DNA of 60,256 nt, the filler included. It is 5 parts of 5 records of this genome, joined end to end, with 100 filler letters (N's around TTAATTAATTAA, not from the genome) between each part and the next. Parts side by side here need not be neighbours in the genome. Positions count along the whole stretch, not along the records: positions 13,736 to 21,575 come from SRR31156797_19891; 4 more parts are not named here. One strand, 5' to 3'. A model generated the notes under the pieces. That model was not told the DNA's origin. It was given only the letters and a program-made list of their open reading frames with translations, and ran no database searches. The position numbers and the translations under genes are program-made. Position 1 is the stretch's first letter. Every line of letters starts with the position of its first letter. Below, one piece after another: positions 5,596 to 59,926 of this stretch.

Positions 5596-6162
5596 TTGAC
5601 CTTCCCAAAGATCAGCACTTGGTTTTTTTGTTAAAATAGAGTTTGGGACTCCTAAATATTCACCAAAAGCAAACTCATCACTTTTATACATATTTCCTAG
5701 AGGGTTAATCGCACAAGCAGTATCACCATAGTGAGTCCCATACCCTAAAAGTATCTCAGAACGATTTGATGTTCCAACTACAATTGCATTATATTTTGCT
5801 GAAATGTCGTATAACACTGACATTCTCATTCTTGCACTAAAATTTCCTTTTCGAAGAGCACTTGCATCTTTTTCATTATGATCAAAGTATCCCTCTACCA
5901 TTGGTGCGATAGAGATTGTTTCATACTTTATAGAAAATTTTTCACAAAGCTCTTTTGCATCTTCTAGACTACTGTTACTTGAATATTGGGAAGGAAGTAA
6001 TACTCCATGTACTTTATCTCCAAAAGCCTCTTTACAAAGAATAGCAACTATAGCAGAATCAAGTCCCCCACTAATACCTATCACAACATCTTTTACCCCA
6101 ATCTTCTCAGCCTCATCTTTTAAGAATGTAACCATTTGATCTTTTATATTTTGATGATTCAT
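5596..6162 (-). CDS. nadE: NH3-dependent NAD+ synthetase (3' truncated by contig end)
   Basis: GISGGLDSA, GNFSARMRM, GTSNRSE..GYGTHYGD, KKPSADLWEGQ. Confidence 0.93.
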
Positions 6163-6333
6163 ACTCTCCCTTTTCAGTGAAGTTTTACATTAAGTTTTGA
6201 TTATAACAAATTTAAAATTAATAAATAACTTTTCTTACCACTTTGTAAATAGTGTAATTGGTAATAAAATATGACTTTTGTTTAAGAATAGAGGTGTAAA
6301 ATTATATTATAAATTATTCCTATAAGGGTTACA

Positions 6334-8169
6334 ATGGAAACTCAATCTTTATTGCAAAGAATCGCAACTCCTTTAGCTGTTCTTTTCATATGTTCAAGCT
6401 TAATACTTTTAGGGCTTTATCCTGATTTAAGTAGTATTTTAGGAGGAATTGCCCTCTTTTTAATTGGTATGGAATATATGGAGAGTGGATTTAAAGGCTT
6501 TTCTGGTGGTTTTTTAGAAAAAATATTACAAAAATTCACAAATAACACCCCTAAAGCTATTGCTACGGGTTTTTTTGCAACAGCTGTGGTACAAAGCTCT
6601 AGCCTTGTCTCAATTATTGTTATCTCGTTTTTAAGTGCAGGTCTTATCTCTTTAGCTTCAGCTATTGGAGTGATCTTTGGATCAAATATAGGGACCACTG
6701 CTACGGCTTGGCTTGTCTCATTGTTTGGTCTTAAAATCAAGATATCAGCCTATGCAATGCCAATGATTGTAATGGGTATTGCTATTCCACTTATATTAAA
6801 AAAGAGTAGCTGGAAAGGGATCGCTGCAATTTTTATTGGTCTTGGGATCATCTTTCTTGGAATCAACTATATGAAAGAGGGATTTGAGACTTTAAAAGAT
6901 GGGATTGATCTAGCAAGCTATGCTATGGATGGCTATCTTGGAATCTTTGTCTATGTTTTAGTGGGAGCAATTGCAACTATTGTGATCCAATCAAGTAGTG
7001 CAACTATGGCTCTTATTATCACAGCTCTTGCCACTGGACAAATCGAATATGCCAATGCATTAGCCCTTGCAATTGGAGCAAATCTAGGGACTACAGTAAC
7101 TGCAGTTTTAGGAGCCTTAAAATCAAATGAAAATGGAAAAAGATTAGCTTTAGCCCATTTTATTTTTAATATGATCACTGGACTTATCGCTATAGCTTTT
7201 ATCTATCAGCTTACAGACCTTGTAGATATTCTTGCCTCGATCGTTGGAATCACTAATGATAATATTGCTATGAAACTAGCTCTATTTCACACTATTTTTA
7301 ATATTATTGGGGTTTTAGTTTGCTCCCCTTTTATTACACAACTAGTAAGATTTTTAGAAAAACAGTTTATAGAGAGTAAAAAAGAAGCTGGAAAAGCTAA
7401 ATATTTGGATGAAAATGCTATTGCTATCCCTGATCTTGCGATATCTTTAATCAAACAAGAGGTTCTGCATCTTTTTAAAAATGGGTTTAAAATCATCGCC
7501 CATGGAATCAATGTAAAAAAAGAGAATCTTAAAACTAATATGGATAGTTCAGAGATCATCTCTAAGCCTTATTCAAGTGAATATATTGATATGGAAACTT
7601 TTTATGACCTTAAGGTAAAAAATCTTTATGGTCAAATTGTCGAGTTTGCAACAAAAGCCCAGCTGAATATGAATCATGATGAGATAGAACAGATATATAA
7701 ATTAAAACTTGCTTGTAGAGATATTGTTGAAGCATTAAAAGATACAAAACACCTCCAAAGCAATCTTGTAAAATACTCAAAAAGTGAAAACATAGAGATA
7801 AGAACTCAATATATCAATTTGAAAAAAGATCTTGTGGAACTTTTAAGATCTATCTTACAAATATCAAAACTTGAAGAGTCAGATGAGATCATCTTACTTT
7901 TATCAAAAACAAAAGTACAAATGGAAAAGTATGATCAAATAGCCAATGAAAAGCTTGATAACTTGATACGACAAGGAAATATCTCTTTAACGATGGCCAC
8001 TTCATTGATGAATGATAGTGGATATGTATATGATATCAGTAAAAACCTCATCGAGATGGCAGAAATTATCTTTGTAGATAAAAGTATCGTAAATGATATC
8101 TTAATAGATACCAACGATATTGATGAGATGTTAAATAAAAAGAACACAGGAGAAAAAGATGGGGATTAA
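6334..8169 (+). CDS. Na/Pi cotransporter family protein with PhoU-like helical C-terminus
   Basis: Two QSSS repeats (VVQSSS, VIQSSSAT) with GSNIGTT and GANLGTT; multiple TM segments. Confidence 0.9.
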   Translation: METQSLLQRIATPLAVLFICSSLILLGLYPDLSSILGGIALFLIGMEYMESGFKGFSGGFLEKILQKFTNNTPKAIATGFFATAVVQSSSLVSIIVISFLSAGLISLASAIGVIFGSNIGTTATAWLVSLFGLKIKISAYAMPMIVMGIAIPLILKKSSWKGIAAIFIGLGIIFLGINYMKEGFETLKDGIDLASYAMDGYLGIFVYVLVGAIATIVIQSSSATMALIITALATGQIEYANALALAIGANLGTTVTAVLGALKSNENGKRLALAHFIFNMITGLIAIAFIYQLTDLVDILASIVGITNDNIAMKLALFHTIFNIIGVLVCSPFITQLVRFLEKQFIESKKEAGKAKYLDENAIAIPDLAISLIKQEVLHLFKNGFKIIAHGINVKKENLKTNMDSSEIISKPYSSEYIDMETFYDLKVKNLYGQIVEFATKAQLNMNHDEIEQIYKLKLACRDIVEALKDTKHLQSNLVKYSKSENIEIRTQYINLKKDLVELLRSILQISKLEESDEIILLLSKTKVQMEKYDQIANEKLDNLIRQGNISLTMATSLMNDSGYVYDISKNLIEMAEIIFVDKSIVNDILIDTNDIDEMLNKKNTGEKDGD

Positions 8170-8404
8170 AAGTTTTATAGCAGACTTAAAAGATAGTTTT
8201 GGACTAAAGATCGATAAAAAACTAGGAAAGAAAAAAGCTCTCAAAGAGCTTTTGAAAAAGCTTCAACTAAAAGAGGAAAAGCTCACAAAAAAAATAGGAA
8301 AGAAAAAACATAAACAGGAAATTAAGGAGATAACCCAAGAGCTTGAAATCGTACAAATGCAAATAAAAAAATGTGACAAAATATTAAAAAAGCTTGATCA
8401 ATAA
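8159..8404 (+). CDS. Small Lys-rich coiled-coil hypothetical protein
   Basis: 81 aa, GGAG RBS, overlaps the cotransporter stop codon. Confidence 0.65.
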   Translation: MGIKSFIADLKDSFGLKIDKKLGKKKALKELLKKLQLKEEKLTKKIGKKKHKQEIKEITQELEIVQMQIKKCDKILKKLDQ

Positions 8405-8481
8405 ACTTTTTTTTTGTCTTTTTTCTATATAATATCTCTTAATTTAGTAATACGGTAATCATATAATTCAAAAGGAAAAAA

Positions 8482-9549
8482 ATGGATAACAACCTTATCA
8501 TAAAACTTTTTAGATTCAACCCTAAAACAGACTATCTTCCATACTACAAACAACACTCTTTGGTATATACTTCAGAAGATACGATCACAGATCTTTTAAA
8601 AAAACTCAATAGCTTAGAGAGATTTAGTTTTGAAGGAACAGAAGAATTTGGAGTAAAGGTAAATAACCTTTTTGTCTCAACTGAAACTCCAATCAAACAG
8701 ATTGTTGATAAAACATCAAATGAATTAACGATTGAACCTGTAAGTACATATAGGGCGATTCATGATCTTAGTATCAACAATAGTGACTTTTTAGAAAAAC
8801 TTGCACTCTTTGAAAACTACTTAACAGCGGAGCAAAAAGAAACATATACAAAAGAACTACAGCTTTATTATTATGCTTCTAATAGTTTGAATTTTCACAA
8901 AGATTATATTGGAGATCATTCAATTATTGTTGCAAGTGATATTCTTAAAAATACTCCTGAACTTCAAAAGGAGATCTATACAATTGTTTCAAACAAAGAT
9001 AATGGTATCTGGTATCACACTTCTTTGATGAATAGAATTCACAACATTGATGAAGCTAAACATGAAAAAATAGAACAACTTCTTTTAGATATTACAAAAC
9101 AACACCAAAATACAAGTGGGACACTTTTAGAAGATATTACAGATATTACTCAAGAGTTTAGTGATTTTAATATTGCAGTATATGATAAAAAATGTACAGG
9201 AGCTTTAAAAAAGATTGTGCAAAATAGTAAAGCAAATTTTGTAAATACAGCAACACAAAATGAAGATTTAGCTTTTCATTCTCTTCAAGCAGATGCAAAA
9301 TTCACTTATAAACTAGCGGGTCAAGTTCTTTTAGATGCCCTTGATAATAATGCAGACTTTATCCTTATAAATGATGAAGAAACATTTACTCTTTTAGACC
9401 AAAAACAAAAAGATATAGCTTGTACCATTGGAAGAGATATAGATTTACCAATCGTTACAGCTGAACAGTTCAGTGCCATGCTAAATGGTGAAAAAGATCA
9501 GGTAAAACTTGGTTTTAATAAACATAAAGTTTCTATTCCTTTCCTTTAA
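8482..9549 (+). CDS. Degenerate SdhB-N / CCG(SdhE)-C fusion protein (DUF5644-like)
   Basis: N-terminus KLFRFNPKTDYLPYY matches SdhB KVFRFNKDINYLPYY. C-terminus LDALDNNADF...IGRDIDLPIV matches SdhE LDAIDQNADM...MGRDIDIPVL. Only 2 Cys, no Fe-S motifs. Confidence 0.75.
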   Translation: MDNNLIIKLFRFNPKTDYLPYYKQHSLVYTSEDTITDLLKKLNSLERFSFEGTEEFGVKVNNLFVSTETPIKQIVDKTSNELTIEPVSTYRAIHDLSINNSDFLEKLALFENYLTAEQKETYTKELQLYYYASNSLNFHKDYIGDHSIIVASDILKNTPELQKEIYTIVSNKDNGIWYHTSLMNRIHNIDEAKHEKIEQLLLDITKQHQNTSGTLLEDITDITQEFSDFNIAVYDKKCTGALKKIVQNSKANFVNTATQNEDLAFHSLQADAKFTYKLAGQVLLDALDNNADFILINDEETFTLLDQKQKDIACTIGRDIDLPIVTAEQFSAMLNGEKDQVKLGFNKHKVSIPFL

Positions 9550-9560
9550 TTTTCTAATCC

Positions 9561-9611
9561 TCCTACTGATTCGTTTAGTAACAACCTTTTATAATCTTTG
9601 AATCAGTAGGA
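9561..9611. repeat. 12-bp perfect inverted repeat in the sdhA leader
   Basis: TCCTACTGATTC (9561-9572) and GAATCAGTAGGA (9600-9611). Confidence 0.7.
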
Positions 9612-9686
9612 ATCATTTAATTTTCTTATATATAAAACTTATGTAGAATAGATAAATTTTTATCTATCTTTACAAAAGGAAAGTAT

Positions 9687-11402
9687 ATGAGTATACCAAT
9701 TCATAAATATGATGTTGTTATTGTAGGGGCTGGACTTGCAGGATGTGCAGCAGCTAGAGAAGCAGCACATGCAGGTTTAAGTGTATGTGTTCTTACAAAA
9801 CTTCATCCACTAAGATCACACTCAGGAGCTGCCCAAGGTGGGATCAACGCAGCTTTAAGTGAGGAAGACACTGTAGAGCTTCATGAGTTTGACACTGTAA
9901 AAGGAAGTGACTATTTAGGTGATCAAGATGCTATTAAATTAATGTGTGAAAAAGCACCAGAGACAATCAGATGGGCAGAGAAAATGGGAGCTGTTTTTTC
10001 AAGAAACGATGAGGGAAAAATCGCTCAAAGACCATTTGGTGGACAAAGTAAACCAAGAGCCTGTTTTGCAAAAGATAGAACAGGTCTTACACTTTTACAA
10101 ACTATCTTTGAACAAGCGCACAGAGACGGAGTTGATTTTAAAGATGAGTATTATGTAGCTGATCTATTATACGAAGATGGTAAGGTTCATGGAGTTGTAG
10201 CATATAACTTAGTAGATACAAAACCTATGATCTTTAATGCCCGAGCCGTAATGTTTGCAACTGGTGGATATGGACGTGCTTTTAAGATCAATTCAAATGC
10301 CCATGCAAACACAGGTGATGCACTTTCTATTGTTGCAAGAAAAGGACTTCCTTTAGAAGATATGGAATTTGTTCAATTTCACCCAACAGGAATTGCTGGA
10401 TCAGGAGTTCTTATCTCAGAAGCAGCTCGTGGAGAGGGTGGAAGATTGTATAACTCAGAAGGGGAGCGATTTATGGAAAAATATGCTCCAAATAAACTTG
10501 AACTTGCGTCAAGAGATGTTGTAAGCCGAGCGATTACTCAAGAGATCCTCGAAGGAAGAGGTTGTGGTGTAAATAAAGATCATGTGAAGATCGATCTTAC
10601 ACATCTTGGTGCTGATATTATCAATGAAAGACTACCAGAACTTAGAGACTTAGCGATCACATTTTTGGGACAAGATATGATCGAAGAGCCTATCTCTATT
10701 GCTGCAACTGCACACTACTCAATGGGTGGAATCCCTGTAAATAAAGAGGGGCATGTAAGAAAAAATACAAAAGAGTTTGTTGAAGGATTCTATGCTGCTG
10801 GGGAATGTTCATGTGTATCAGTTCATGGGGCAAATAGACTTGGAGCGAACTCAGTGTTAGAAGCACTTTTCTTTGGACGACATGTTGGACAAACAATCGT
10901 AGAAGATGTAAAAGCTGGAATCTCTTTTAAAGATGCAAATGAATCAGATGCAGATTATACTTTTAATAAGATCAAAACTATTAAAGAATCAAACGGTAAT
11001 GAAAAGATCCCAGCTCTTAGAGAAGAGTTACAACAAAGTATGACTGATAATGCAGGGGTATTTAGAACGAAAGAATCACTTATAAAACAACAAGCAAACT
11101 TAAGAGAACTTCGAAAACGGTTTGCTAATATTAGAATTGATGATCACTCTACTGTATATAATACTGACCTTCAAGAAGCGATTGAGTTTAGTCATATGCT
11201 AGATTATAGTAAGTTTATTGTTGATGGTGCTATTCATAGAGAAGAGAGTCGTGGAGCTCATTATAGAGAGGATTTCCCAACAAGAGATGATGAGAAGTTC
11301 TTAAAACACACTATGGCTTATATGGATGAGGATAGAAATATCACTACAGAATATATGGATGTTGTTCTTGGTGATTTTGAACCTACAGAGCGAACATACT
11401 AG
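9687..11402 (+). CDS. sdhA: Succinate dehydrogenase/fumarate reductase flavoprotein subunit
   Basis: [16 protein letters not shown] (covalent FAD His), [29 protein letters not shown]. No N-terminal Tat peptide. Confidence 0.95.
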
Positions 11403-11408
11403 GAGATA

Positions 11409-12392
11409 ATGATGAGTCATAAACAAGAGATAAAAAGATTAACTTTTAAAGTTTTTAGATTTAATAAAGATATTAATTATCTTCCATATTACCAAACAAT
11501 TGAAATGGATGTAAATCAAGATGAATTAGTGCTTGATGTAATGAATAGAATCAAATGGGAGCATGATGGAAGCTTCACATATAGAAGAAGCTGTAGACAT
11601 GGAATTTGTGGATCGTGTGCTATAAAAGTAAACCAAAAACCAACCCTTGCTTGCAAAGACAATGTATTTGAACTAGTAGAAATCTTTGGAGAAGAACTTG
11701 TAATTGAGCCTCAAGATAAAACAAAAGCATATAAAGATATGGTTATCGATAAAAATAGCTTTTGGGAAAAGTATGATCAAGTACAACCTTATCTCGTGGC
11801 AGATATTGAAGAGTTTCCAACACAGGAAAACCTTGTAAGTCAAGAAGATGCTGAAAAGATCGATGAAGCTGATTATTGTATCGCCTGTGGAAGCTGTTTT
11901 TATGCTTGTCCTGCAGTTGAAGTAAATGATGAATATATCGGTCCAATGGCACTTACAAAAGCTTGGAGATTTAATGCAGATATTAGAGACAATGCTCATA
12001 ATGAGAGACTTGATACCTTACAAAAGCTAGGAAGCGGTATTTGGGATTGTGTAAAATGTAATGAGTGTGCCGAAGCTTGTCCAAAAGAGCTTGATCCAAT
12101 TGGAAAGATTACAAAACTACACCTACAAACATTTGAAAATGAAAAATCATTAAATAATGTAGCTACAAGACACGCCGTTGGATTTAAATGGTCTATTAAA
12201 AAGCATGGTATCTTAGATGAGGGTGAATTAGTACGATATTCTGAAGGAAACTTTGGAGTGATCAAACATATCCCTGAAGCCATTCCAATGTTTTTACGAG
12301 GGAAACTTGTAATGCCTTGGAATATGCCAAAATCTAAAAATCTAGATGAAATCAAAAAGCTAGTTGATATCACTTCAACAGCAAAATTTTAA
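11409..12392 (+). CDS. sdhB: Succinate dehydrogenase/fumarate reductase Fe-S subunit, type E
   Basis: CRHGICGSC..C [2Fe-2S]; CIACGSCFYACP and CVKCNECAEACP (two full 4-Cys motifs); C-terminal extension. Confidence 0.93.
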   Translation: MMSHKQEIKRLTFKVFRFNKDINYLPYYQTIEMDVNQDELVLDVMNRIKWEHDGSFTYRRSCRHGICGSCAIKVNQKPTLACKDNVFELVEIFGEELVIEPQDKTKAYKDMVIDKNSFWEKYDQVQPYLVADIEEFPTQENLVSQEDAEKIDEADYCIACGSCFYACPAVEVNDEYIGPMALTKAWRFNADIRDNAHNERLDTLQKLGSGIWDCVKCNECAEACPKELDPIGKITKLHLQTFENEKSLNNVATRHAVGFKWSIKKHGILDEGELVRYSEGNFGVIKHIPEAIPMFLRGKLVMPWNMPKSKNLDEIKKLVDITSTAKF

Positions 12393-12408
12393 GAAGTAAG
12401 GAGCCAAA

Positions 12409-13293
12409 ATGGAAAAATTAAAATACGCTTTATACACAGGTTGTACAGCAAGAGAATCAACTCCAGAACTTCTAATGTCAACACAAGCAATTGCTGATAA
12501 ACTAGGAATTGAGCTTGTTTTATTAGATGAAGCTTCATGTTGTGGAGCAAGCCATCTACAAGATTTTGATGATATGTTATCACTTGTGCTTAATGCTAGA
12601 AATATCGCTTATGCAGAAAAACTTGGGCTTACAATGGTAACTATTTGTAATACATGTCAATTAAATACAGCAGTTACAAAAGATAGATTAGATAATGATC
12701 CAGAATTAAAAGCAAAAGTAAATGAAAAACTTGCTGAAGTTGGACTAGAATATAAAGGAACAAGTGAAGTAAAACACTTCTTATATGCTCTTCAAGATGA
12801 GTATGGTTATGACAAGATAGCTGAAGCTGTAACGAATCCAATTGAAGATATTAATGTAGCATCATTTTATGGATGTCATAATATTAGACCAAGTCACTTA
12901 CAACATAAATCAAATAAAGGTGAAGATCCATACAAACCAACTTCTCTTGATAACCTTGTAATAGCTCTTGGTGGAAATGCCGTAGAGTATGAATCTAAAA
13001 ATAAATGTTGTGGTTTCCATGTGGAGCTTCAAAACCCTACAACAGCAAATAGATTAAGTGGAACTGCTATGCTTGATGCAATCGATCAAAATGCTGATAT
13101 GATGGTAACACCATGTCCATTATGTCATCTTAGAATGGATGTACAACAACACAATATCTCAAAAGAGATGGGGAGAGATATCGATATCCCTGTACTTCAT
13201 CTTCCTCAAATGGTTGGGATCGCTTTAGGAATAGACCCTAAAAAACTAGGACTCCAACACAATATTAATCAAACTGGTTTAAATGTAAAATAA
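12409..13293 (+). CDS. sdhE: CCG-domain (HdrB-like) anchor subunit of type E SQR/QFR
   Basis: YTGC, SCCG, CNTC, FYGCH, KCCG, PCPLCH. This is the type-E anchor SdhE, not the flavinylation factor of the same name. Confidence 0.88.
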   Translation: MEKLKYALYTGCTARESTPELLMSTQAIADKLGIELVLLDEASCCGASHLQDFDDMLSLVLNARNIAYAEKLGLTMVTICNTCQLNTAVTKDRLDNDPELKAKVNEKLAEVGLEYKGTSEVKHFLYALQDEYGYDKIAEAVTNPIEDINVASFYGCHNIRPSHLQHKSNKGEDPYKPTSLDNLVIALGGNAVEYESKNKCCGFHVELQNPTTANRLSGTAMLDAIDQNADMMVTPCPLCHLRMDVQQHNISKEMGRDIDIPVLHLPQMVGIALGIDPKKLGLQHNINQTGLNVK

Positions 13294-13294
13294 T

Positions 13295-13320
13295 TTCTAA
13301 AGAGAACTTTCTCTTTAGAA
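13295..13320 (+). terminator. Hairpin after sdhE
   Basis: TTCTAAAGAGA-ACTT-TCTCTTTAGAA immediately after the stop codon. Confidence 0.6.
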
Positions 13321-13477
13321 TATCGATCTATACTTTCTTTATAAAATCACTAAACACTATAATTTCATCCTTGCAAAATTACTCTTAACTTAAACTATTT
13401 CATTAAGGACTATTTTTATCTTTTTTATTAAAGTTTCTTTGAGTATAATCATGTGATTTAAAACTAAAGGAACCAAA

Positions 13478-13635
13478 ATGCCAAAAATTAATAAATACCA
13501 AGATATCAGCGAAGTTGAAAGAGAAGCAAAAAAAGATCTTATCGACAGACATTCACCATTTATCCATTGTGCAGATACTGCAAAAGCTGGAGAGCCATTT
13601 GAAGTAACTGTTAAAATGGGAAATGAATATACTCA
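13478..13635 (+). CDS. Class II SORL / desulfoferrodoxin-domain protein (truncated)
   Basis: AAGGA RBS; IDRHSPFIHCADTAKAGEPFEVTVKMG resembles the superoxide-reductase-like N-terminus. Confidence 0.75.
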
Positions 13636-13735: not shown

Positions 13736-13798
13736 ATCAAACGTAAGGTTTGTGCGTGTGCCGCACAGGCACGGTTTTAAGAATTTGTGAGGTGAATT

Positions 13799-14593
13799 AT
13801 GAGTAATATATTGAGAAAAAATGAAATTGCAAAGATTTTGGGAATGAATCGATCAACTATCAGATATTATGAGCAAATAGGCCTAATCAAACCTCATATT
13901 GATGATAATCAATATAGAGATTATGGTATTGAAGAACTAAAACAACTTAGCCAAATTAATTTTTTAAGAGCCATAGATTTAGATATTAAAACTATAAAGG
14001 AAATAATGAATGGCAATTTGGATGATCCTTCTAAAATTTTACTTCAAAAAAAAGATGAGTTAAATGATTCAATTCAAATATTGAAAAATAACATAAAAAA
14101 AATCGAGGAAATATTCCAATATAGTAATTCAGAAAATAATTATAGGGAATATCAGATTCTTGAGTTTCCAGATAGATATCTTTACGCATTAAAATCTACT
14201 AATAACAGTGATTTAGATAGTTTCTATAAAGAAAATCAGGAATTTTTTGAAGGGAATAAAATTGAACTGGGAGATTGGTTTATCAATATAATTGATGCTA
14301 AAGATTTTATTGATAAGGATACATTTGATTTTGTAGAGTGTGTAGAGATCAAAACTAAAGAAAAAGAGGGGGCTATATTAATTTCAAAAGGTAAATTTGC
14401 GTGTTTTGATATAGTTCTCAATGATAAAAATTTTGAAATATTTGAATCAATACTAAGTGAAATCAAGAATATTCTCAACAAAAATTTATTAGAAATAAAA
14501 AATGGAAAAGTTTTATTCCTAAATAAAGATAATATGAATTTGAATTTCAGTAATTCCAAACGAATAATATCTATTCAAATCCCTATTATTTAG
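13799..14593 (+). CDS. MerR-family transcriptional regulator with GyrI-like C-terminus
   Basis: EIAKILGMNRSTIRYYEQIGLIKP..NQYRDY; GAGGTG RBS. Confidence 0.88.
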   Translation: MSNILRKNEIAKILGMNRSTIRYYEQIGLIKPHIDDNQYRDYGIEELKQLSQINFLRAIDLDIKTIKEIMNGNLDDPSKILLQKKDELNDSIQILKNNIKKIEEIFQYSNSENNYREYQILEFPDRYLYALKSTNNSDLDSFYKENQEFFEGNKIELGDWFINIIDAKDFIDKDTFDFVECVEIKTKEKEGAILISKGKFACFDIVLNDKNFEIFESILSEIKNILNKNLLEIKNGKVLFLNKDNMNLNFSNSKRIISIQIPII

Positions 14594-14629
14594 GTATTAT
14601 ATAAGAGAATTCACTGATTAGGAGGCGAT

Positions 14630-15031
14630 ATGAAAAAAAGAATAACTTATCTGATTTCATCAATTGTAGTTTTCATAGCCTGCATATTGATAGTAATTTT
14701 ATTTGCTAATAATCATTTGATTCGAGGTTTTATAGGTGATGTTCTAGTTATCACATTAATTTATAGCTTTATCAAAATATTTATAGATGTAAAGCCACTT
14801 AAACTTTGTATATACATTTTGTTTTTTGCCTATACTATTGAGATTCTCCAATACTTTAAATTTGTTGAATTAATTGGACTTGGGGAATATCGAATAGCCA
14901 GAATAGTAATAGGAACAACATTTGATGTACGGGATTTACTCGCATACTCATTAGGGGCAATATTTACTTACACGCTAGAAACACTACTCTTTAAGAAATT
15001 ATCAAACAAAGAAAATGAACTCAAAAAATAG
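14630..15031 (+). CDS. DUF2809-like membrane protein
   Basis: IRGFIGDVL...IEILQY...RIVIGTTFDVRDLLAYSLG. Confidence 0.8.
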   Translation: MKKRITYLISSIVVFIACILIVILFANNHLIRGFIGDVLVITLIYSFIKIFIDVKPLKLCIYILFFAYTIEILQYFKFVELIGLGEYRIARIVIGTTFDVRDLLAYSLGAIFTYTLETLLFKKLSNKENELKK

Positions 15032-15072
15032 ATGAAGAAAACTTAAAATCCTGATTTGGAGGTGATCTCAGT

Positions 15073-15663
15073 ATGGAATTTATTCATAAAATTGAAGCTG
15101 ATATGCGAAAGAAAAATATACAAGTCTCTCAAAGCGAATGGAATAATTTTGTATCATTATTGACAGAAAAAAAGTATCCCCCGAAATCTAAAATTATTAG
15201 TCAAACTAATTTTTGTGATGAAGTTTTATTTATTTCTGAAGGAATTGTTTCTTCTGAGTATATATTGGAAGATGGAAAAAGGATTATTTCGAGATTTTTT
15301 ATTGAAGATAATTTATGCACGAATGTTGTAAGTGCTATGACAAAAAAGCTGGCTTCAGATAATATAGTTGCTATTACAGAGGTAAGTGCCATCTCTATTC
15401 CATTTAAAGTTTTTTATCAATACTATTTAAGAGAAGGAAAGATCGGTGAATATTTTAGAATTAAACTCTTGGATAATCTCTTAGAAGCTAAAAATTTTAT
15501 ATCAATAAAAACTATATCAAAAACTGAAGAAAAGTATAACTTTTTAGAACAAAATTATCCTAGCATCTTACAATTTGTACCTGCCAAAGATATTGCCAGC
15601 TTTATTGGTATTACTCCTGAAGGTTTTAGTCGTTTTTTAAAAAAACGATATAAAAAGTCTTAA
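15073..15663 (+). CDS. Crp/Fnr-family regulator
   Basis: cNMP-binding-like N-terminus; C-terminal KDIASFIGITPEGFSR HTH. Confidence 0.85.
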   Translation: MEFIHKIEADMRKKNIQVSQSEWNNFVSLLTEKKYPPKSKIISQTNFCDEVLFISEGIVSSEYILEDGKRIISRFFIEDNLCTNVVSAMTKKLASDNIVAITEVSAISIPFKVFYQYYLREGKIGEYFRIKLLDNLLEAKNFISIKTISKTEEKYNFLEQNYPSILQFVPAKDIASFIGITPEGFSRFLKKRYKKS

Positions 15664-15775
15664 CCCAAATCAATTACTTTCTTATTTCATACTGATATAC
15701 TATATCCAAGTTACTATAGTGTATTTCATTCATGAGGAAATGGTATGAAATTTTTTTTAAGAATAGGAGATTGAT

Positions 15776-16633
15776 ATGAGTGAATTAAAAATGCCGGTTG
15801 AAAGAGATTTTGGATGGAAATTGAAGAAAAGTGAATCAAGCTATTTTGGGATTCATAAAAAAGAAAATGGACAATTTTGCGTTGTATTAAACCATTCGCT
15901 TATTAGAGGTTGTACTTCTGAAATGATTCATTGGTGGTTTCTAAATTTCCCAAAATTAAAAGTTAAACTAAGAGATATAGAAGTATATGACGAGAAAACT
16001 GTTCAAGCTTATTTTCTTTGGCATCCATCTGATCATCACAGTGTTTCGATCAATGGAAATTTGGGTCAAGGAAATACCTCTAAAACAGGAGCAGCAATTC
16101 ATATTCGGGAAGCAATGCAATATAAAAAATTTGCTTGGAAATATCAAGTAGACAATCAAATGAAAATATTTTATTGTGACTCAGATGGTTGGGCTATGGG
16201 AAGAGAAATTCCAATATTTGGAAAAGCAATGGTATTAAGAATTAATTACAACGATGTTTACGAGGGGAACCGTATAATTGGTGTACATTATCATTATGAA
16301 ATTGTAGTAGGAATTAATGGAAATAATCCTATTTCAAAAATGATAAATAAAAAAATAACTTCACATTTTACACCTGAATTTTTTGAAGCTTGGCAGCTTC
16401 ACAATGTAATTGAAGTTGGTACTTTCGAAAACTTTTTACCTGCTTTATACAAACAGAAGCATAATTCTAATTCAATGATTTTTAGTAAAACAATGAATTG
16501 TATAACTGACACAGAGAATAGACAAACTGGTTATGACGAGAAGTTTTTCGAAGAGCGTTTAAATGGATATAAAGAGGCTTCAAATGTTTATGACTATCAG
16601 AAGTATAATGCTACTTCTTTCATAAAATCATAG
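15776..16633 (+). CDS. DAPG hydrolase PhlG-like protein
   Basis: GCTSEMIHWWF and YFLWHPSDH motifs; late WQLHNVIE His/Glu pair. Confidence 0.7.
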   Translation: MSELKMPVERDFGWKLKKSESSYFGIHKKENGQFCVVLNHSLIRGCTSEMIHWWFLNFPKLKVKLRDIEVYDEKTVQAYFLWHPSDHHSVSINGNLGQGNTSKTGAAIHIREAMQYKKFAWKYQVDNQMKIFYCDSDGWAMGREIPIFGKAMVLRINYNDVYEGNRIIGVHYHYEIVVGINGNNPISKMINKKITSHFTPEFFEAWQLHNVIEVGTFENFLPALYKQKHNSNSMIFSKTMNCITDTENRQTGYDEKFFEERLNGYKEASNVYDYQKYNATSFIKS

Positions 16634-16650
16634 TAAAAATCAATAAAAAC

Positions 16651-16675
16651 AGCCACCTCATTTTACGAGGTGGCT
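16651..16675. terminator. Hairpin between convergent genes
   Basis: AGCCACCTC-ATTTTAC-GAGGTGGCT, with an A-rich tract on its left (U-tract for the minus strand). Confidence 0.75.
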
Positions 16676-16678
16676 TCA

Positions 16679-17578
16679 CTATTTGTCAGCTAAAGTACTA
16701 AAATATTCAATTTTTTCTTCACAGATTTGCTTAGTTAGTTCTTTCAATATCTCAACTCTGCTTGCAAGATATTCTAACTCTTCTTTTGTAATCTTATAAT
16801 TTGATCTATATCTAGAATCAATATACGCATCCTTAAGAAGTTTAAATAGTCTCTTATCCTCTTTTGTTACTTGAGGAAATACTTCTTTAAACCTTATATC
16901 ATGACTTCGTACCATTCTATATAATTTGAATAGATTATGAGTTTTCGGTGCATAATCTGTATAGATCAAGCAGATTGCATTAAAAAATCTTTCCGTTGCT
17001 TGATGCAATTGAAAAGCAGCGTTCTTCAAATACAAATCACCCTTCTCCGCATTATTATAATGAATATAATATGTTTCAAAAAAAACACTAGCACTCCCAA
17101 ACCAATCTTCAAAGTACTCCTTAGATTTTTCAAATCTTAATTCATTTGAAATTTTACTTGGTTCCTCAAACTCTCTATTCCTAAGATTACTTAAAACATA
17201 TCCTTCGTAATATATATCGCAGAAGAAATATCTTTTCTCTTTTAACATATACTTAATGTATGGGTAACCATGATATATTAATCCAACTGGTGTTTTAAAA
17301 CCTAAAGCATCAATTTTATCTTCCAACTTATGCTGAAAATTTCCTTTTTTAGCTTTTTTTTCATCACTGGTTACAACTAATAAATCGTAATCACTTAAAT
17401 ACTCATATGTAGTTCCTCGCTGATCTTGATACATATCCTCAACCCAAGTTCCTCTGGCATAACTCCCATACAAAATTACCATATTTACATTTGGAAAATC
17501 CAATTCAATTAGCTCAACAATTCGTTTTAATTCTTCCTTTTTTCGATCAGGTAGAAATTTTGGTATTCCTGTTTTCAA
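16679..17578 (-). CDS. Minimal nucleotidyltransferase-HEPN fusion protein
   Basis: ILYGSYARG..SDYDLLVV (MNT), then AAFQLHQATE..KTHNL..AYIDSRY (HEPN); TTG start after GGAGG. Confidence 0.88.
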   Translation of the reverse strand: MKTGIPKFLPDRKKEELKRIVELIELDFPNVNMVILYGSYARGTWVEDMYQDQRGTTYEYLSDYDLLVVTSDEKKAKKGNFQHKLEDKIDALGFKTPVGLIYHGYPYIKYMLKEKRYFFCDIYYEGYVLSNLRNREFEEPSKISNELRFEKSKEYFEDWFGSASVFFETYYIHYNNAEKGDLYLKNAAFQLHQATERFFNAICLIYTDYAPKTHNLFKLYRMVRSHDIRFKEVFPQVTKEDKRLFKLLKDAYIDSRYRSNYKITKEELEYLASRVEILKELTKQICEEKIEYFSTLADK

Positions 17579-17818
17579 TGGGGTTACCTCCTAAAATAAG
17601 CAGTTTCTCACTAAAAGTTCAAATGAGCATAGTCTATTATATCACAAATCAGAATTAGAATATCAGATAAAATTACTCTTAAATTTTACCTGGTATTATT
17701 TTACTTGTTAGATGATTAATTATGATAAATAGTTCGGTTTTTCATCATAGTTATCGTTATTCCACTTATTTTTAAAACCACAATACAACTTTGTGTCTCT
17801 TTGTGTAGTCAATTTGTC

Positions 17819-17847
17819 TTGATGCATAGTTTTGATTAGGGTATAAT
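17819..17847 (+). promoter_or_regulatory. Sigma70-type promoter, candidate cassette promoter (Pc-like)
   Basis: TTGATG-N17-TATAAT about 100 bp upstream of the first cassette core site. Confidence 0.55.
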
Positions 17848-17865
17848 ATTGTATTGAAATAAAAT

Positions 17866-17959
17866 ATAACGCGCAATGGAAGTTGCGTGTTATGGGTAAA
17901 TATGGATGGATAGACGCAAGTTTTTTGTTATTTATGGCGTCTATAGATGAGTTATCAGA
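17866..17959 (+). mobile_element. Putative attI-like recombination site
   Basis: Ends in GTTATCAGA (17951-17959), the exact reverse complement of TCTGATAAC at 19657-19665. Further GTTAT cores at 17889 and 17927; two inverted repeats (17866-17893, 17910-17944). Confidence 0.45.
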
Positions 17960-17985
17960 AAGTAAAGATAAAATTAGGAGAAAAT

Positions 17986-19647
17986 ATGATAAAGCTATTA
18001 AAGAAACATTACACTTATTTGAAGATACATTATAAAAAACTACTAATAACTTTTAGTATTCTTGGCTCAGCACTTGTATTGAAATTCTATTATGAAGACA
18101 TTATTAATAAAATTTCACATATCTTTGAAGGTGAGACATATAAAAACATAACTACAAATATTGTTTTTTTACAGTTTAGTCTAACATTTTTAGTTGTAAG
18201 TATACTATCAATTACTTCTTCAAAAACAAATGAAAGATTATATGGTGAAAAAATAATTGATATAGTTTTTAAAAATATCAAATTTTTAATTAATTTATCT
18301 ATTGTAATTTCACTGTTAAATTTATATTTTTTATTAAATAATAGTTCCGATATTAAAATAATCTTTTGCTTCTTATTAGGAATTCTTTTACTATATTTAT
18401 TTATAAGAAAAATACTAATACTAATTTTTAATCCCCATGCTTCTCATGAAATTATAAAAAAAAGAACTCTAAAGGAAGTTGAAAAAGATATTAAAAAAAT
18501 TCTTAACAAAGAATACGGAAAGCAAAATAATCATCTTATTAGATTAGTTGATAGTAGTATCGTTGGGATAAAAACTAATGATTTATTGCCCGTTTTTGAA
18601 AATATGAATTATTATGATGAGTTATTTTTTGAAATACTCACACGTAAAAATAAAGAAGTGTGTCTATGCTACTTCAATAGCAGGTTTTTAATACCAAATT
18701 TTTATTCTCACTATATAACTTTACTAAACTATTTGATTTTTGAGGCAAAAGAGTATCGATATACTTTTTCAAAATTAAACTCAGTCATTGACACTTTTAA
18801 TAATACGGAAGTATATTTCATAACCCAAAATTTTAACAAATTTGTAAATAAGTTAATTGAAAGCATAAAATATTTAAAAGACCCTAATGAAATTACTTTA
18901 ATTAGTGAGTTTTTTTCAAAGTTATTTGAACAACTAAATTCTATAGTTAATCTAGAAGATATTAATATAGTCAAATTTAGGCAAAAGTATAAAGTTATGT
19001 TAGAGGCTATACCTGTAAATTGGATTGAAAAATTTTATATAAATATGAAATCTAATAATCATTTAAATGAAAAGGAACAGTTAGAGATACTTAATAACTT
19101 TATATATAAAATCCTTCGAGTTCCAAATTTTATTGAATTTAGATTTAGTTTCGAAAAAAAAGATAAATTTAATGAAAACTATTTTTCATTTTCATTAGCT
19201 TATCTATTAATTAAATTAGGAGATTCACAAGACGAAAATAATTTAAACTTAATTATGGGAAATCATAATAACAAATATTTTTATAAAGTAAACTTCCTTT
19301 TGATGCTTTCAACCTATAAGAAATTTTTGAGACCAGAAAATAGCATAACATACATTAAGACTTGGTTAAGTAAAAACTCAGAAAAGTTTATATTCTCCGA
19401 AAATAAAACTATTGAAACATACAATTTTATACTAAAACATTGTAATAATGATTTTGTACTATCCCCAAGTCCATATTTATTAAATGGAAAAACATTCTTT
19501 AACAAAATCACAATCTTTAATTTTTACTATAATTATGCATTAATTTTTAACTATCAAAGTTTAAATGAACTTATTAAATGTGATAATCATGATAAAGTTA
19601 TACTTAATGAAAATAAGGACTTTTTTGATATTTTTGATAATATTTAG
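17986..19647 (+). CDS. Hypothetical membrane protein, probable integron cassette gene
   Basis: About 4 N-terminal TM segments and a long soluble AT-rich tail. GGAG RBS before ATG 17986 (in-frame ATG also at 17947). Stop lies 10 bp before the attC. Confidence 0.7.
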   Translation: MIKLLKKHYTYLKIHYKKLLITFSILGSALVLKFYYEDIINKISHIFEGETYKNITTNIVFLQFSLTFLVVSILSITSSKTNERLYGEKIIDIVFKNIKFLINLSIVISLLNLYFLLNNSSDIKIIFCFLLGILLLYLFIRKILILIFNPHASHEIIKKRTLKEVEKDIKKILNKEYGKQNNHLIRLVDSSIVGIKTNDLLPVFENMNYYDELFFEILTRKNKEVCLCYFNSRFLIPNFYSHYITLLNYLIFEAKEYRYTFSKLNSVIDTFNNTEVYFITQNFNKFVNKLIESIKYLKDPNEITLISEFFSKLFEQLNSIVNLEDINIVKFRQKYKVMLEAIPVNWIEKFYINMKSNNHLNEKEQLEILNNFIYKILRVPNFIEFRFSFEKKDKFNENYFSFSLAYLLIKLGDSQDENNLNLIMGNHNNKYFYKVNFLLMLSTYKKFLRPENSITYIKTWLSKNSEKFIFSENKTIETYNFILKHCNNDFVLSPSPYLLNGKTFFNKITIFNFYYNYALIFNYQSLNELIKCDNHDKVILNENKDFFDIFDNI

Positions 19648-19656
19648 TAATTCAAA

Positions 19657-19744
19657 TCTGATAACATGTCGGCAGATTACATTTTATCGTCTTACGCTAT
19701 CGCTGAGGACTCAAAAACGTCATCTGTCCGCAGGGACGTTAGAT
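19657..19744 (+). mobile_element. attC: Integron attC site
   Basis: TGATAAC ... GTTAGAT, 88 bp, GC-enriched imperfect palindrome; CGGCAGATTAC pairs with GTCATCTGTCCG with one extrahelical base. Confidence 0.78.
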
Positions 19745-20152
19745 AAAATAGTTGCTAAATCTGAAGAAAAGCAATTTCAAATAATCTTTAAAAATTTTGC
19801 TGATTTATTTTTTGAAAATGTTGATATTGATATTTCATCAGAAGTTCATACTGGTAGAGGAATTGTGGATTTTAAATTTAGTATTGGTAAAAAATATCGA
19901 GCATTAATCGAAATAAAACTTGATTCAAATACTAATACCGAAAATGGCTTAAATTATCAGCTACCAATATACTTACATGCTGAAAATGTTGATATCGGAA
20001 TCTTTTTACTAGTTATTTTTAAAGAGCAAACAATAGAAAAAATATCTGAATATAAGCAAATGACATTACAGCTCAGTGAGAAGTATAAGAAAGACTTTCA
20101 TTTTTATTATATTGATGCAAGAAACAATATAAAATCTGGTTCAACAATATAA
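19742..20152 (+). pseudogene. 5'-truncated PD-(D/E)XK nuclease-like cassette gene
   Basis: SEVHTGRGIVDFKFS..ALIEIK..YQLPIY motif. No ATG or RBS just after the attC; the track ORF from 19565 only exists by reading through the attC. Followed by ATCTAAC at 20195-20201. Confidence 0.6.
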
Positions 20153-20231
20153 AACGCTGATGAATTACTTCTTTGAAAAATGAGTTTGTACAACATCTAA
20201 CAAAAAACATAATTTTTAATTCAAACAATTA

Positions 20232-20268
20232 AAAAGATTTCTTACAGATGTCTTGTAAGAAACCTTTT
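20232..20268 (-). terminator. Hairpin downstream of the TA operon
   Basis: AAAAGATTTCTTACA...TGTAAGAAACCTTTT. Confidence 0.55.
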
Positions 20269-20275
20269 ATAAACA

Positions 20276-20548
20276 TTAGTAAACATCATCATGTGAGCCG
20301 ACATTAATTGGTATTATTGTATCATCTTCTATAATAAAATCAATTGTAATTCGATAAGACATGTTAATTGAAACAGAATAAATTTCTGATAACTTCCCTT
20401 TTAATTTATGTAGTCTTAAAGATGGGTGATGAGGATTTAATTCCATTAATTTTAGAGTTTTTTCATATTGAGAAGCAATTTCAGGATGTTTTTTTATAAA
20501 TTTCTTTGCAATTTTGACATAGGAATCAGTAAAAACAAGTTTAGCCAT
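20276..20548 (-). CDS. Type II toxin, RelE/ParE superfamily
   Basis: 90 aa; HPSLRLHKLKG..YSVSINMSYRI..VGSHDDVY. Confidence 0.88.
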   Translation of the reverse strand: MAKLVFTDSYVKIAKKFIKKHPEIASQYEKTLKLMELNPHHPSLRLHKLKGKLSEIYSVSINMSYRITIDFIIEDDTIIPINVGSHDDVY

Positions 20549-20795
20549 TTTTTATTCTTTCCATATGCTCATCTACAGACTCTGTAGTGTAATTGCCATT
20601 TTTTAAATCGTTTCTTGCTTCTAAAAGAGCCGCTTCAAGCTCACATTCTCGCAAGTAATTATATTTTTCTAAAGAGAGAACAACATATTTATTTTTTCCT
20701 CTAACTGAAATCATTAATTCTTCATCATTTTGAATTACATCATTAAAAGCAGATACACCTTTTGTTTTAATATCATTAGCTGTGATACTAAGCAT
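20541..20795 (-). CDS. Type II antitoxin, Phd/YefM-like
   Basis: ITANDIKTKG..ISVRGKNKYVVLSLEKY; overlaps the toxin start; GGAGG RBS. Confidence 0.85.
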   Translation of the reverse strand: MLSITANDIKTKGVSAFNDVIQNDEELMISVRGKNKYVVLSLEKYNYLRECELEAALLEARNDLKNGNYTTESVDEHMERIKNG

Positions 20796-20825
20796 TATTT
20801 AACACCTCCACAAAACTATTTAGAA

Positions 20826-20862
20826 TACTATTAATAGTACTATAAAAAATACTTTTAGTCAA
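20826..20862 (-). promoter_or_regulatory. TA operon promoter with palindromic operator
   Basis: Minus-strand TTGACT-N17-TACTAT; perfect palindrome TACTATTAATAGTA (20826-20839) overlaps the -10. Confidence 0.65.
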
Positions 20863-20946
20863 GATGCTAAAAAATCTGTATTAAGAAAAAATAAATTAAA
20901 ATGAATAAAAGACTATTACTTAGAAAAGACTTTAAAGATTAAAAGC

Positions 20947-21001
20947 GTATAACACTAGCCAGATGAAATGAAACCCACACTTCATCTATGTCATTCAACG
21001 T
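20947..21001 (+). mobile_element. Degenerate attC-like remnant
   Basis: GTATAAC-ACTAGC-CAGATGAA...TTCATCT...CAACGT shares the TAAC..CAGAT..CATCT..ACGT skeleton with the 19657 attC but lacks an intact GTT. Confidence 0.45.
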
Positions 21002-21179
21002 CCCCCCCAACATTCCCCTCTTCTACTTTTTAAATCGGATATACATTATCTATTGATTCAGCTAACCGAGCTTATGACAAAAAAATACTTCATACGTTTC
21101 ACACCTAAAAAAGTTAATAATAATTGGCCGAGTTTGCGTTATAATATATTCACTATTTCACGCATTTTAAACAATATTC

Positions 21180-21421
21180 TAAATTTTGAAAAATGTTATT
21201 TTGATGAATCCTGGTACACTGTATCTCTTAATGATAGTTTACTTTCATTGGCAGATAGAAAACTTTCAACTTATATAAATTCATTAGCTAAAGCTGGTTT
21301 TGTAATTGAAGAAATGGTTGAAGAATCCGAAAATAAATATCTGGAAAATAATGATAGCCTTTTTGCTCAGAAAGCTCAAATGTTACCTGTAACTTTTGTA
21401 ATTAAAGCAAGAAAACAGTAA
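21180..21421 (+). pseudogene. C-terminal fragment of a class I SAM methyltransferase
   Basis: YFDESWY..RKLSTYINSLAKAGFVIEEMVEE..PVTFVIKARK; no SAM-binding motif upstream; followed by ACCTAAC (21432-21438). The 5' boundary is approximate. Confidence 0.55.
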
Positions 21422-21575
21422 CAATTTTAATACCTAACAAACATTATAAATTGCATTTACTTATGTAATCTAATTTTGATAATTTATTGGACATAATTTT
21501 TTAGTACTAAAGTATGTTTGAATTTATTCATTCACGTGGTATAACTATATTATATAAATTTTAATTAGTTTCTTA

Positions 21576-48042: not shown

Positions 48043-49236
48043 TCCTATCATCTCACCCATTTGTGCCATTTTTGCTTGATTGAAAAGAAGCTCTTCTTGG
48101 ATCTTGTTTTGTTTTTGAAGCTCCATATTTAGCTCAGTAATCTGTGTAATATCATTTAAAAATAGCTTGATGATATTATCTTCCAGCATAGTTCCATAAT
48201 GCCCTTTTATTTGATAATACCGTTTATTTATTACTATGGTTTTATGAAGTACCATACTTTGTTTTAGATCTTCTAGTATCTGTTCCCAAAGTTCAGACGG
48301 AATAACTTTTGTGATTGGATCATCAATATGCACATCAAAGTTTGCTTTTGTGATCCCATTAGTCCAAAAGATCACTTGCTCATCACCAAGATCAAGTATC
48401 TCTATCACATACTCTTGTAGTGCATTAAAAGTATCTCGTGCATCATAAAGTTTTGATTCTAAAAATGTGGTATAGTTTCCTTTAAGACCACTTACAAGAT
48501 CTTTGGTGCTTAAGATATGAAAAGTTTCAAACTGATCATCATTTAAAACTATTTTACGAATATTATTGGTTCTCATAATTGTAATAATATCACTTAAAGA
48601 ATAGTTGACATCTGCTTGAATTAACGGGGATCTTGCAAAGTTTTTTACCGCTTGATTTTGGTCTATATTTTGCTGGGCAAGTTTTACGATATCACTCTCA
48701 GAGATGAGTCCATAAGGGATATTCTCTTTTGCTATTAATACTGCTGAGAGTTTATCTTTTACCATACTAGAAAGCACATCTTTTAAGTGAGCACTTTCAT
48801 CAAAGATATTTGCTTGATTATCTGGCTTTAAAAGTTGGTGAATATTGATACTAGTTCGATTGAGTTGATCTTCTAGTTCATAGACGATTCGCTCTTGCTC
48901 TATACACCCTACATATTCCCCTTTTCCATTGATCACAATAACTCTTTTGATATTATTATCGATCATCATACTTAAAGCATGATTTACCATACGTGAGCTA
49001 TGGAGAGTGATAAGATTTTTTAAAGCAAAATCAAAAACCTTTTCTTTAAAACTCACATGCTCTTTAAAAAGTCTCAAAATATCACTTTGGGTAATGATCC
49101 CTGTAGGGATTTTCTTTTTATCTAAGATAACAAGATGGTGAAGATGATATTTTGACATAATATCAATAGCTTCTTGCAAGCTTATATTTCGAGTGATTGT
49201 GTCATTGGATTCATAGATAAAATTCTTTAAAAACAT
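48043..49236 (-). CDS. CBS-domain sensor, probably a histidine kinase (3' truncated)
   Basis: Four CBS repeats (GIITQSDI, GCIEQERI, GLISESDI, ILSTKDL), a PAS-like segment, then LLFNQAKMAQMGEMIG pre-H-box. Confidence 0.8.
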
Positions 49237-49359
49237 TTGAAATTATACTCTAAAATACTAAAAAATATTATTAATATACTATTTTTTAAAAAATTACAAT
49301 TGTAAGCTCTAATTATGTTCATGATAGAATATAAATAAATAATAATAAAGGTTTGGAAA

Positions 49360-51201: not shown

Positions 51202-51210
51202 ATAGAGTAT

Positions 51211-51228
51211 TTGTTCATTTCTTGTTCA
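51211..51228 (+). promoter_or_regulatory. Direct repeat, candidate OmpR-family binding site
   Basis: TTGTTCA-N4-TTGTTCA (11-bp period) upstream of a TATTAT -10-like element. Confidence 0.45.
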
Positions 51229-51273
51229 CACATTTTAGTTATTATTTTTATAATGTAAAATAATGGAGCTAAA

Positions 51274-53481: not shown

Positions 53482-53494
53482 AATGAATTTTCTA

Positions 53495-55741: not shown

Positions 55742-55897
55742 AGATAAATTTTATAGAAATTTTACTTTATGCAATCTTGCATTCAAATTTTAATTCCAAC
55801 AATAGTAACATTATCGTTTCTTTCCTCTTTCTTAGTGATTTAAAATTTTTGTTGCGATAGGGTGCATGTTTTTTAGATCTAATCTTCGATTTACTCT

Positions 55898-57895: not shown

Positions 57896-57904
57896 CGAAT
57901 ACCT

Positions 57905-58327
57905 TTATAATTTATCAATTTTTTTTAATACTTGTTCGATCGCTAAAAATAGATCATGAAAGTTGATTGGTTTTAAAACATAGCTATCTACTTTTAAAAG
58001 CATACTTTCCATAAAAATATTCAAATCATTATGTTGTGTTAAAATGATGATTTGAGTAGCACTATTTATATTTTTTATATGTTTTGCCAATTCTAATCCA
58101 TCCATTTTAGGCATATTTACATCGCTTATAACAATTTGAATATTTTGATTCTGTTGAAATTGATCTAAGGCATCTTCACCATTTGTAGTGATGATAACTT
58201 CAGCAAAAAGTTCCTCTAAAAGTTCAGAAATAACTTCTAAAGTGGTATAATCATCTTCCACATATAAAACTTTCATTTTCTTAGTATACAATGAAATTGC
58301 TTCCATCTTATCTAACATATTTTCCAT
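57905..58327 (-). CDS. Single-domain response regulator
   Basis: YVEDD, ISDVNMP, VLKP. Confidence 0.9.
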   Translation of the reverse strand: MENMLDKMEAISLYTKKMKVLYVEDDYTTLEVISELLEELFAEVIITTNGEDALDQFQQNQNIQIVISDVNMPKMDGLELAKHIKNINSATQIIILTQHNDLNIFMESMLLKVDSYVLKPINFHDLFLAIEQVLKKIDKL

Positions 58328-58345
58328 TTTTATAAATTCCCCTTG

Positions 58346-59044: not shown

Positions 59045-59087
59045 TTTTTACTCCTTATTTATAATTATGATACAATTACAAGTTTAT

Positions 59088-59143
59088 TGTAAAATTATAA
59101 AATAGAAATCTAAGTAACTTTTCAATACAATCTTAGGAATCTT
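59088..59143 (-). repeat. 56-bp imperfect inverted repeat, left copy
   Basis: 46/56 identity (manual count) to the reverse complement of 59831-59886. Confidence 0.8.
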
Positions 59144-59159
59144 TGAATAGGTAGAATAG

Positions 59160-59825: not shown

Positions 59826-59830
59826 AAACT

Positions 59831-59886
59831 AAGATTCCTCGTATTTTTTTGTAAACTTACTTAGATTTTTAGTTTATTATTTTACA
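59831..59886 (+). repeat. 56-bp imperfect inverted repeat, right copy
   Basis: AAGATTCCT...TTACTTAGATTT...TATTATTTTACA. Confidence 0.8.
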
Positions 59887-59926
59887 TAATATTTATAAGA
59901 CTATTAAAAGTAAGAGAGTGTAGATT

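Follow-up and report, generated by a model that had tools for sequence, protein, structure and literature searches.

Recombination of a folded single strand by integrons is generally ascribed to the IntI insertion and to the bulged bases of attC, and integron finders rely on both. Bulged attC bases govern IntI recombination according to part of one paper (PMC3053210), and passages of two others define a cluster of attC sites lacking an integrase (CALIN) as two or more attC sites (PMC4889954; PMC9024848), present CALINs as degraded integrons or pieces of split ones (Cury et al., PMC4889954), and list for the Firmicutes a few CALINs besides a single complete integron (PMC9024848). We describe here a region between positions 17862 and 21438 of a 60,256-nucleotide stretch of DNA (positions 1-60256; hereafter the window), which consists of five joined contigs of 27-59% GC. 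A previous reading of the sequence alone (the sequence-only reading) had recognized there a decaying, integrase-less cassette array with toxin-antitoxin (TA) cargo and ends expected of circular cassettes, and this holds at least for the first cassette; its assignment to a standard CALIN is not supported by the criteria that it set itself, covariance support and further copies. Judging from its sequence, the region is probably a frozen relic of a cassette platform that was integron-like and belonged to a short, non-IntI recombinase. An entry site at 17862-17957 and a second degraded hairpin at 20947-21006, overlooked in the sequence-only reading, appear to tie the array to that system. Taking this fossil together with the variant in which a solo entry site is still in use, we consider it very likely that the origin is of the short-recombinase, integron-like kind.

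The region is similar to CALINs (as portions of PMC4889954 and PMC9024848 present them) in its TAAC...GTT hairpin-bounded cassettes, complementary ends, absence of a nearby integrase, TA cargo, and decay, whereas it has no site that passes a canonical model, no bulge at position 9, other spacing, and an entry site of the short-recombinase type that was kept. Sedentary chromosomal integrons (IntI, attI, Pc, and attC) have the same layout, a G^TT crossover as in the intact relatives of the window array, and tens of cassettes, and the TA pair of the window occurs in both kinds of array. The short recombinase, in contrast, is without the IntI insertion, has an N-terminal extension, usually faces the array, and has a structured entry site 70-150 bases past its stop codon. 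Part of Weinberg et al. (2017, PMC5737381) proposes that the DUF1874 motif, a structured repeat between consecutive open reading frames (ORFs), is an atypical attC that has no integrase; that motif is multistem, and Rfam at E<=5 gave nothing over our region but two chance snoRNA matches. No published description of cassette arrays run by an insertion-less recombinase was found in a search that left out most subscription journals.

Short-Recombinase Arrays in Other Genomes

The short recombinase is a tyrosine recombinase of 330-360 amino acids that does not have the IntI insertion (aligned with three IntI proteins, it shows gaps of 31 and 10 residues), and it misses the IntI cut-off. In genome G528, a 356-amino acid recombinase is followed by 33 sites over 42 kb in the same direction, and 28 of 30 successive junctions match over 9-10 bases. 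Fifty sites of this family have an unbroken 8-bp stem, AC(G/T)T-C in the right arm, a left spacer of 4 bases (49/50), and a right spacer of 6, 7, or 8 bases followed by GTT. The crossover at G^TT and the logic of circular cassettes are shown in intact arrays; the arrays and the entry site are linked to the short recombinase, and cassette 1 of the window is bounded by the entry site and a first cassette site (site 1). The enzyme would cut at G^TT and insert circular cassettes at the entry site, so that the ends of each cassette would be complementary. Each cassette ends in a hairpin made up of TAAC, 4 bases, one arm of an 8-bp stem without interruption, a middle that varies, the other arm, 6-8 bases, and GTT. 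By analogy with IntI, the short enzyme itself presumably performs the recombination on the folded bottom strand.

Among 251 genomes in the phylum of G003, a Spirochaetia record, 38 have relatives of the short recombinase (some weaker matches may be other recombinases), as do 3 of 190 in the phylum of G001, a Fusobacteriaceae record. In 12 of the 35 genomes from which loci were retrieved, family sites lie near the recombinase gene, and many of the other loci run into a contig end; worn sites are common in the arrays of G046 and G141 as well. No IntI passed the cut-off in the 151 genomes from the phylum of G001 or in the 101 from the order of G002; 19 of 201 Spirochaetota had one. Related sites stand beside relatives of the window toxin in 2 of 79 loci (L041 and L062), and the genomes of both have a 356-amino acid recombinase and no IntI over the cut-off. 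As side observations, many G528 cassettes (L182, 136-11652) are just ~260 bp, too short for a usual gene, and are possibly non-coding, while in G003 an IntI integron with canonical attC sites (L093-L096) coexists with a separately located short recombinase that is broken and accompanied by non-canonical sites (L186-L187).

In Cohnella herbarum (NZ_CP051681), a relative of the window methyltransferase is set between long TAAC...GTT hairpins. A model made from 12 Cohnella hairpins gave 23 sites in two loci, where successive sites have complementary ends (at least 9 bases at 7 of 11 junctions). This model is too narrow, because it misses the sites of L062; none of the 150 genomes scanned with it in the G001 phylum gave a match. 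The Cohnella array (L168, 2129-6092; L149; L150) begins ~220 bp from three adjacent XerC/D-like recombinases of 312, 323, and 341 amino acids, which are unlike the Spirochaetota enzyme and are linked to the array by position only.

Entry Site and Cassette 1

The DNA that follows the stop codon of the short recombinases in G046, G141, and several Spirochaetota has a common block before the first GTT, and 17862-17957 of the window (plus strand) aligns with it. This attI-like candidate entry site folds into two hairpins (z = -5.5), and the crossover within it would lie between G17951 and T17952. Its alignment with G046 is clear, with a score of 44 that none of 794 low-GC stretches reached (null maximum 34), while 3 of the 794 scored as well as G141, a borderline result. 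A DNA search of 190 genomes with the entry site gave 31 weak matches, nearly all short, and its closest look-alikes fall in the phylum of G001. The best match (76% identity across 62 bases, E 5e-4) lies in G148, where a solo entry site resembling that of the window precedes a gene with complementary ends, an anatomy as in the window; no short recombinase adjoins it, none was found in the genome with one query, and the family model gave no significant site downstream.

Neither a recombinase nor a remnant of one was found on the 7.8-kb contig by tblastn with IntI and short recombinases, 4.2 kb upstream being covered, which agrees with the absence of intI that had been proposed. A fused nucleotidyltransferase-HEPN gene (16679-17578, minus strand; Pfam HEPN and NTP_transf_2), outside the array and pointing away from it, occupies the place of the recombinase in intact relatives. 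A recombinase C-terminal remnant suspected by eye at 17750-17840 was rejected, its profile scores being below zero. A candidate sigma-70-like promoter facing the array (TTGATG-17-TATAAT, 17819-17847, plus strand) matches the consensus at 10 of 12 positions, which is weak support, given that 40 sites of such quality were found against 37 expected. It was also observed that excision of cassette 1 would put an ATG within the entry site (17934-17951) in frame with the PF28130 fragment described below, which has no start of its own; chance alone would give this one time in three.

Cassette 1 (17952-19738, plus strand, 1787 bp) is the sole intact cassette. Its ends, GTTATCAGA at 17951 and TCTGATAAC at 19657, are complementary over 9 bases, and both this pair of words and the pair at 19738 and 20195 proved to be exactly as the sequence-only reading gave them. 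A given 9-mer is expected about 0.0006 times per 100 bp of this contig composition, and a given 7-mer about 0.008 times. The cassette contains a membrane-protein ORF of 553 amino acids with its own ribosome-binding site (17986-19647, plus strand). This ORF has no close relative: one search gave zero matches, and another gave five weak ones (best E 5e-6, 20-34% identity); DUF2254 is a lead only.

Cassette site 1 (19659-19744, plus strand) is a degraded, non-canonical attC-like hairpin in which 6 of 8 stem pairs form and the spacers are of 5 and 9 bases. On the bottom strand, 19657-19744 does form a single hairpin, as had been claimed for an attC at this junction, although it is weak (-11.3 kcal/mol, z = -2.0, equalled by 8 of 200 shuffles) and non-canonical; the top strand folds differently (z = -2.3). 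Further copies of the element were not found: none in the window, one chance match in one search of viral contigs and 0 in the others, just a 34-base chance match in plasmids, and, in metagenome contigs, 0 in one search and 10 matches in another that all were one coding stretch. The right-arm patterns of the site were absent from 301 Spirochaetota genomes and from two further sets (0/5 and 0/13).

Cassette site 2 (20947-21006, plus strand) is a degraded hairpin with spacers of 4 and 9 bases, 5.5 of 8 pairs, and GTC in place of GTT as R'. Both hairpins have a CAGAT/CATCT stem core and a 9-base right spacer, and both are on the entry-site strand, directly past gene ends or at a cassette end. A strict scan of the 60 kb for the family signature found site 1 alone, and it fired in 4 of 2000 simulated contigs and never in 386 kb of control DNA. 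A relaxed scan added only a right end at 21006; one match was seen in 1 of 1500 simulated contigs, and two matches in none. A covariance model of 27 family sites scored held-out loci at 13-57 bits, reported nothing in two canonical arrays, and had two matches only in the window, site 1 and an entry-site hairpin. Sites 1 and 2 have the AC(G/T)T-C motif and partial stems, with a right spacer of 9 and model scores that are not significant. The relatives of the window cargo found as family cassettes (the methyltransferase in Cohnella and the TA pair in L062) would also count for a short-recombinase origin.

Several results weigh against this origin. The scans were widened to 5- and 9-base spacers, 5-6 pairs, and GTC after the window sites were known, and the null rates are therefore optimistic; a 9-base right spacer is seen in none of the 50 family sites. 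Under the family model, site 1 reached 9.4 bits (E 2.3) through its outer box only, which is not significant, and site 2 was unreported at E<=3, while the Cohnella-only model gave site 1 a score of 11.4 bits (E 0.08) in a shifted alignment. Only 2 of the 23 post-recombinase stretches were near or above the null maximum with the entry site and the remaining 21 did not pass, and a profile of all 23 had 17903-17968 as its top nhmmer match in the 60 kb, yet with E 0.17. Finally, a role of the short enzyme in recombining these sites is deduced from linkage and junction logic.

Alternatives to a Fossil Platform

The alternative that survives best, though we consider it unlikely, is that the same system is still alive, the solo entry site being served in trans by a short recombinase encoded elsewhere in the host and the 9-base right spacer being a variant of the host rather than a sign of decay. 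That spacer and the stem core are common to both sites, as a variant of the lineage would be; neither cassette 1 nor the entry site looks damaged, the lack of a recombinase remnant upstream may mean that the entry site was always without a gene of its own, and G148 likewise has a solo entry site. On the other hand, site 1 has two mismatches in its eight stem pairs, site 2 has lost its GTT, and two cargo genes are truncated. A recombinase of this type was not found in G148 with one query, and the contigs listed for one run included no junction from which a cassette was precisely missing, a weak negative.

An ordinary CALIN, in which canonical attC sites decayed past recognition after the loss of IntI, seems slightly less probable still. 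Its R boxes and 9-base end complementarity would suit canonical arrays too, and indeed the length of the end match does not part the two families of sites (7-10 bases in canonical and mostly 9-10 in non-canonical ones); relatives of the toxin are present in IntI arrays, and degraded or split integrons are what CALINs are said to be in the part of PMC4889954 cited above. We made a canonical covariance model from 32 of 42 candidate attC sites of IntI-adjacent DNA and toxin-homolog loci, 10 being excluded as doubtful, redundant, or misaligned. It gave 44 matches in 18 loci, the best 39 of which, including sites outside the training set, scored 28-60 bits on the modelled strand, whereas site 1 reached 7.7 bits (E 4) through its outer box only and site 2 was unreported at E<=10. 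The L boxes of site 1 make 3.5 of 7 pairs, while 27 of the 42 harvested candidates (some of them false or misoriented) make 6-7, and site 1 is without the extrahelical base at position 9 and departs from the geometry of R''-5 nt-L'' and a 5-7 nt R' spacer. As a canonical attC on the minus strand, site 1 was rejected with 2.5 of 7 pairs. IntI-adjacent DNA has AT-rich heads with, by eye, no obvious likeness to 17862-17957, which the DNA after short recombinases does resemble. The sites of the window are non-canonical, and a standard CALIN is therefore unsupported.

Chance, meaning R-like words and weak hairpins in AT-rich DNA between the decayed genes of an island, is very improbable: although no model scores either hairpin significantly, the fold z of site 1 is just -2.0, and a second copy was nowhere found, it would have to supply ends that match over 9 bases, a sequence resembling an entry site at that very end, and two signature hairpins on the same strand within 3 kb.

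Decay of the Downstream Units

If the region is the remnant of a short-recombinase platform, the recombinase gene is absent from this copy, and cassette 1 would be the latest insertion, still whole. The older cassettes would have suffered deletions of 5' parts and hairpins that removed two gene starts and one hairpin, and the TA pair would persist by addiction, intact probably because its loss is toxic. The cargo itself is as the sequence-only reading listed it: an orphan membrane protein, a truncated putative nuclease (here a PF28130 gene), a reversed TA pair, and a methyltransferase fragment. PADLOC had no family for it.

The remnant of cassette 2 (19739-20201, plus strand) consists of the start-less 3' part of the PF28130 gene, which ends at 20152, and a bare R''-like 7-mer at 20195-20201 whose hairpin is gone. 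The PF28130 piece covers the last ~140 of 378 amino acids and is 48% identical to residues 235-372 of a Peribacillus protein, the match starting at 19754, 16 bases past the junction. The family may be a nuclease, a label that we take from a PD-(D/E)xK-like pattern. Because the ends of this unit (GTTAGAT at 19738 and ATCTAAC at 20195) are complementary over only 7 bases, the gene may have been cut by recombination with a chance GTT inside it. A tandem pair of R''-like 7-mers follows the fragment at 20186-20201, perhaps the scar of a deleted cassette.

The reversed TA pair (20276-20795, minus strand) has both frames open, a RelE/HigB-like toxin at 20276-20548 and a Phd/YefM antitoxin at 20541-20795, with a terminator-like hairpin of the operon at 20232-20268 (minus strand). 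Relatives of the pair sit between cassette sites in L062 (352-1238), a non-canonical array, and in L018 (1139-2270), a canonical one, which suggests a cargo pool common to both systems. In the same run as the contig, a second TA copy ~85% alike to 20275-21001 was observed at a depth of 28.5, and another contig, at 27.7, matches the hairpin of site 2; they are possibly the same cassette in another organism.

Beyond site 2, the 3' fragment of a class I S-adenosylmethionine methyltransferase (21170-21421, plus strand) retains 82 of 269 amino acids, with 66% identity to a Paenibacillus and 57% to a Cohnella homolog. It is followed by a bare R''-like 7-mer (21432-21438, plus strand) that may be chance (fold z = -0.1), and no hairpin occurs before the contig end. 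The boundaries at 20195 and 21432 are thus bare 7-mers without hairpins, and no complementary ends were found for the TA and methyltransferase units. The TAAC remnants proposed at 20947 and 21432 are present; these positions are the starts of the 7-mers, and TAAC itself is at 20950 and 21435.

Contig and Host

The array-bearing contig (13736-21575, 7840 bp, 26.5% GC) ends 154 bp past its last ORF. Two contigs of one public run span it (13736-20747 and 20724-21575) with zero differences at depths of 39.6 and 41.5, so the layout did not arise from a mis-join. The run may be the source of the contig, and the agreement does not count as independent evidence. No RNA holder of the contig was listed. 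The five contigs of the window almost certainly come from different organisms; on the others, translations suggest a fumarate reductase/succinate dehydrogenase-like operon at 5596-13635 and a series of response regulators, PAS/GGDEF/EAL proteins, and kinases at 48043-60256. The array-bearing contig opens with a short GC-rich stretch (13736-13780) unlike the remainder, perhaps the edge of a repeat at which the assembly broke off, and it carries an intact DAPG hydrolase (PhlG)-like gene (15776-16633) adjoining Crp-like and MerR-like regulators. Several diverged copies of the nucleotidyltransferase-HEPN gene occur in the same run at comparable depth (37-42), which may mean that the host has numerous paralogs.

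The top genome match of the toxin is a Fusobacteriaceae record (81%), and the two cargo fragments (PF28130 and the methyltransferase) are nearest to Bacillota proteins. Fusobacteriota was considered as the host phylum and is not established: the Crp-like protein was found in 0 of 151 genomes there and nucleotidyltransferase-HEPN in 0 of 190. The suggestion of a lineage where integrons are poorly documented suits the relatives of the entry site (the 0 of 151 genomes with IntI noted above) and would apply to the host only if it belongs among them.

A Possible Second Class of Integrons

On balance, we lean toward a second, so far undescribed integron class that has an insertion-less recombinase, its own structured entry site, and differently shaped hairpins. 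Its arrays would reach tens of cassettes in the Spirochaetota and the Fusobacteriota, with related sites in Bacillota, all of them lineages in which standard finders detect integrons rarely or never, and with cargo families common to true integrons; the window would then contribute an orphan entry site with a lineage-specific variant of the hairpin. Being decayed, the window copy is mainly an example of such an orphan site and of array erosion. If an insertion-less recombinase does build equivalent arrays, cassette capture has been undercounted in whole phyla, and hairpin recognition would have a second solution, which is testable with the intact enzymes and sites of G141 and G528.

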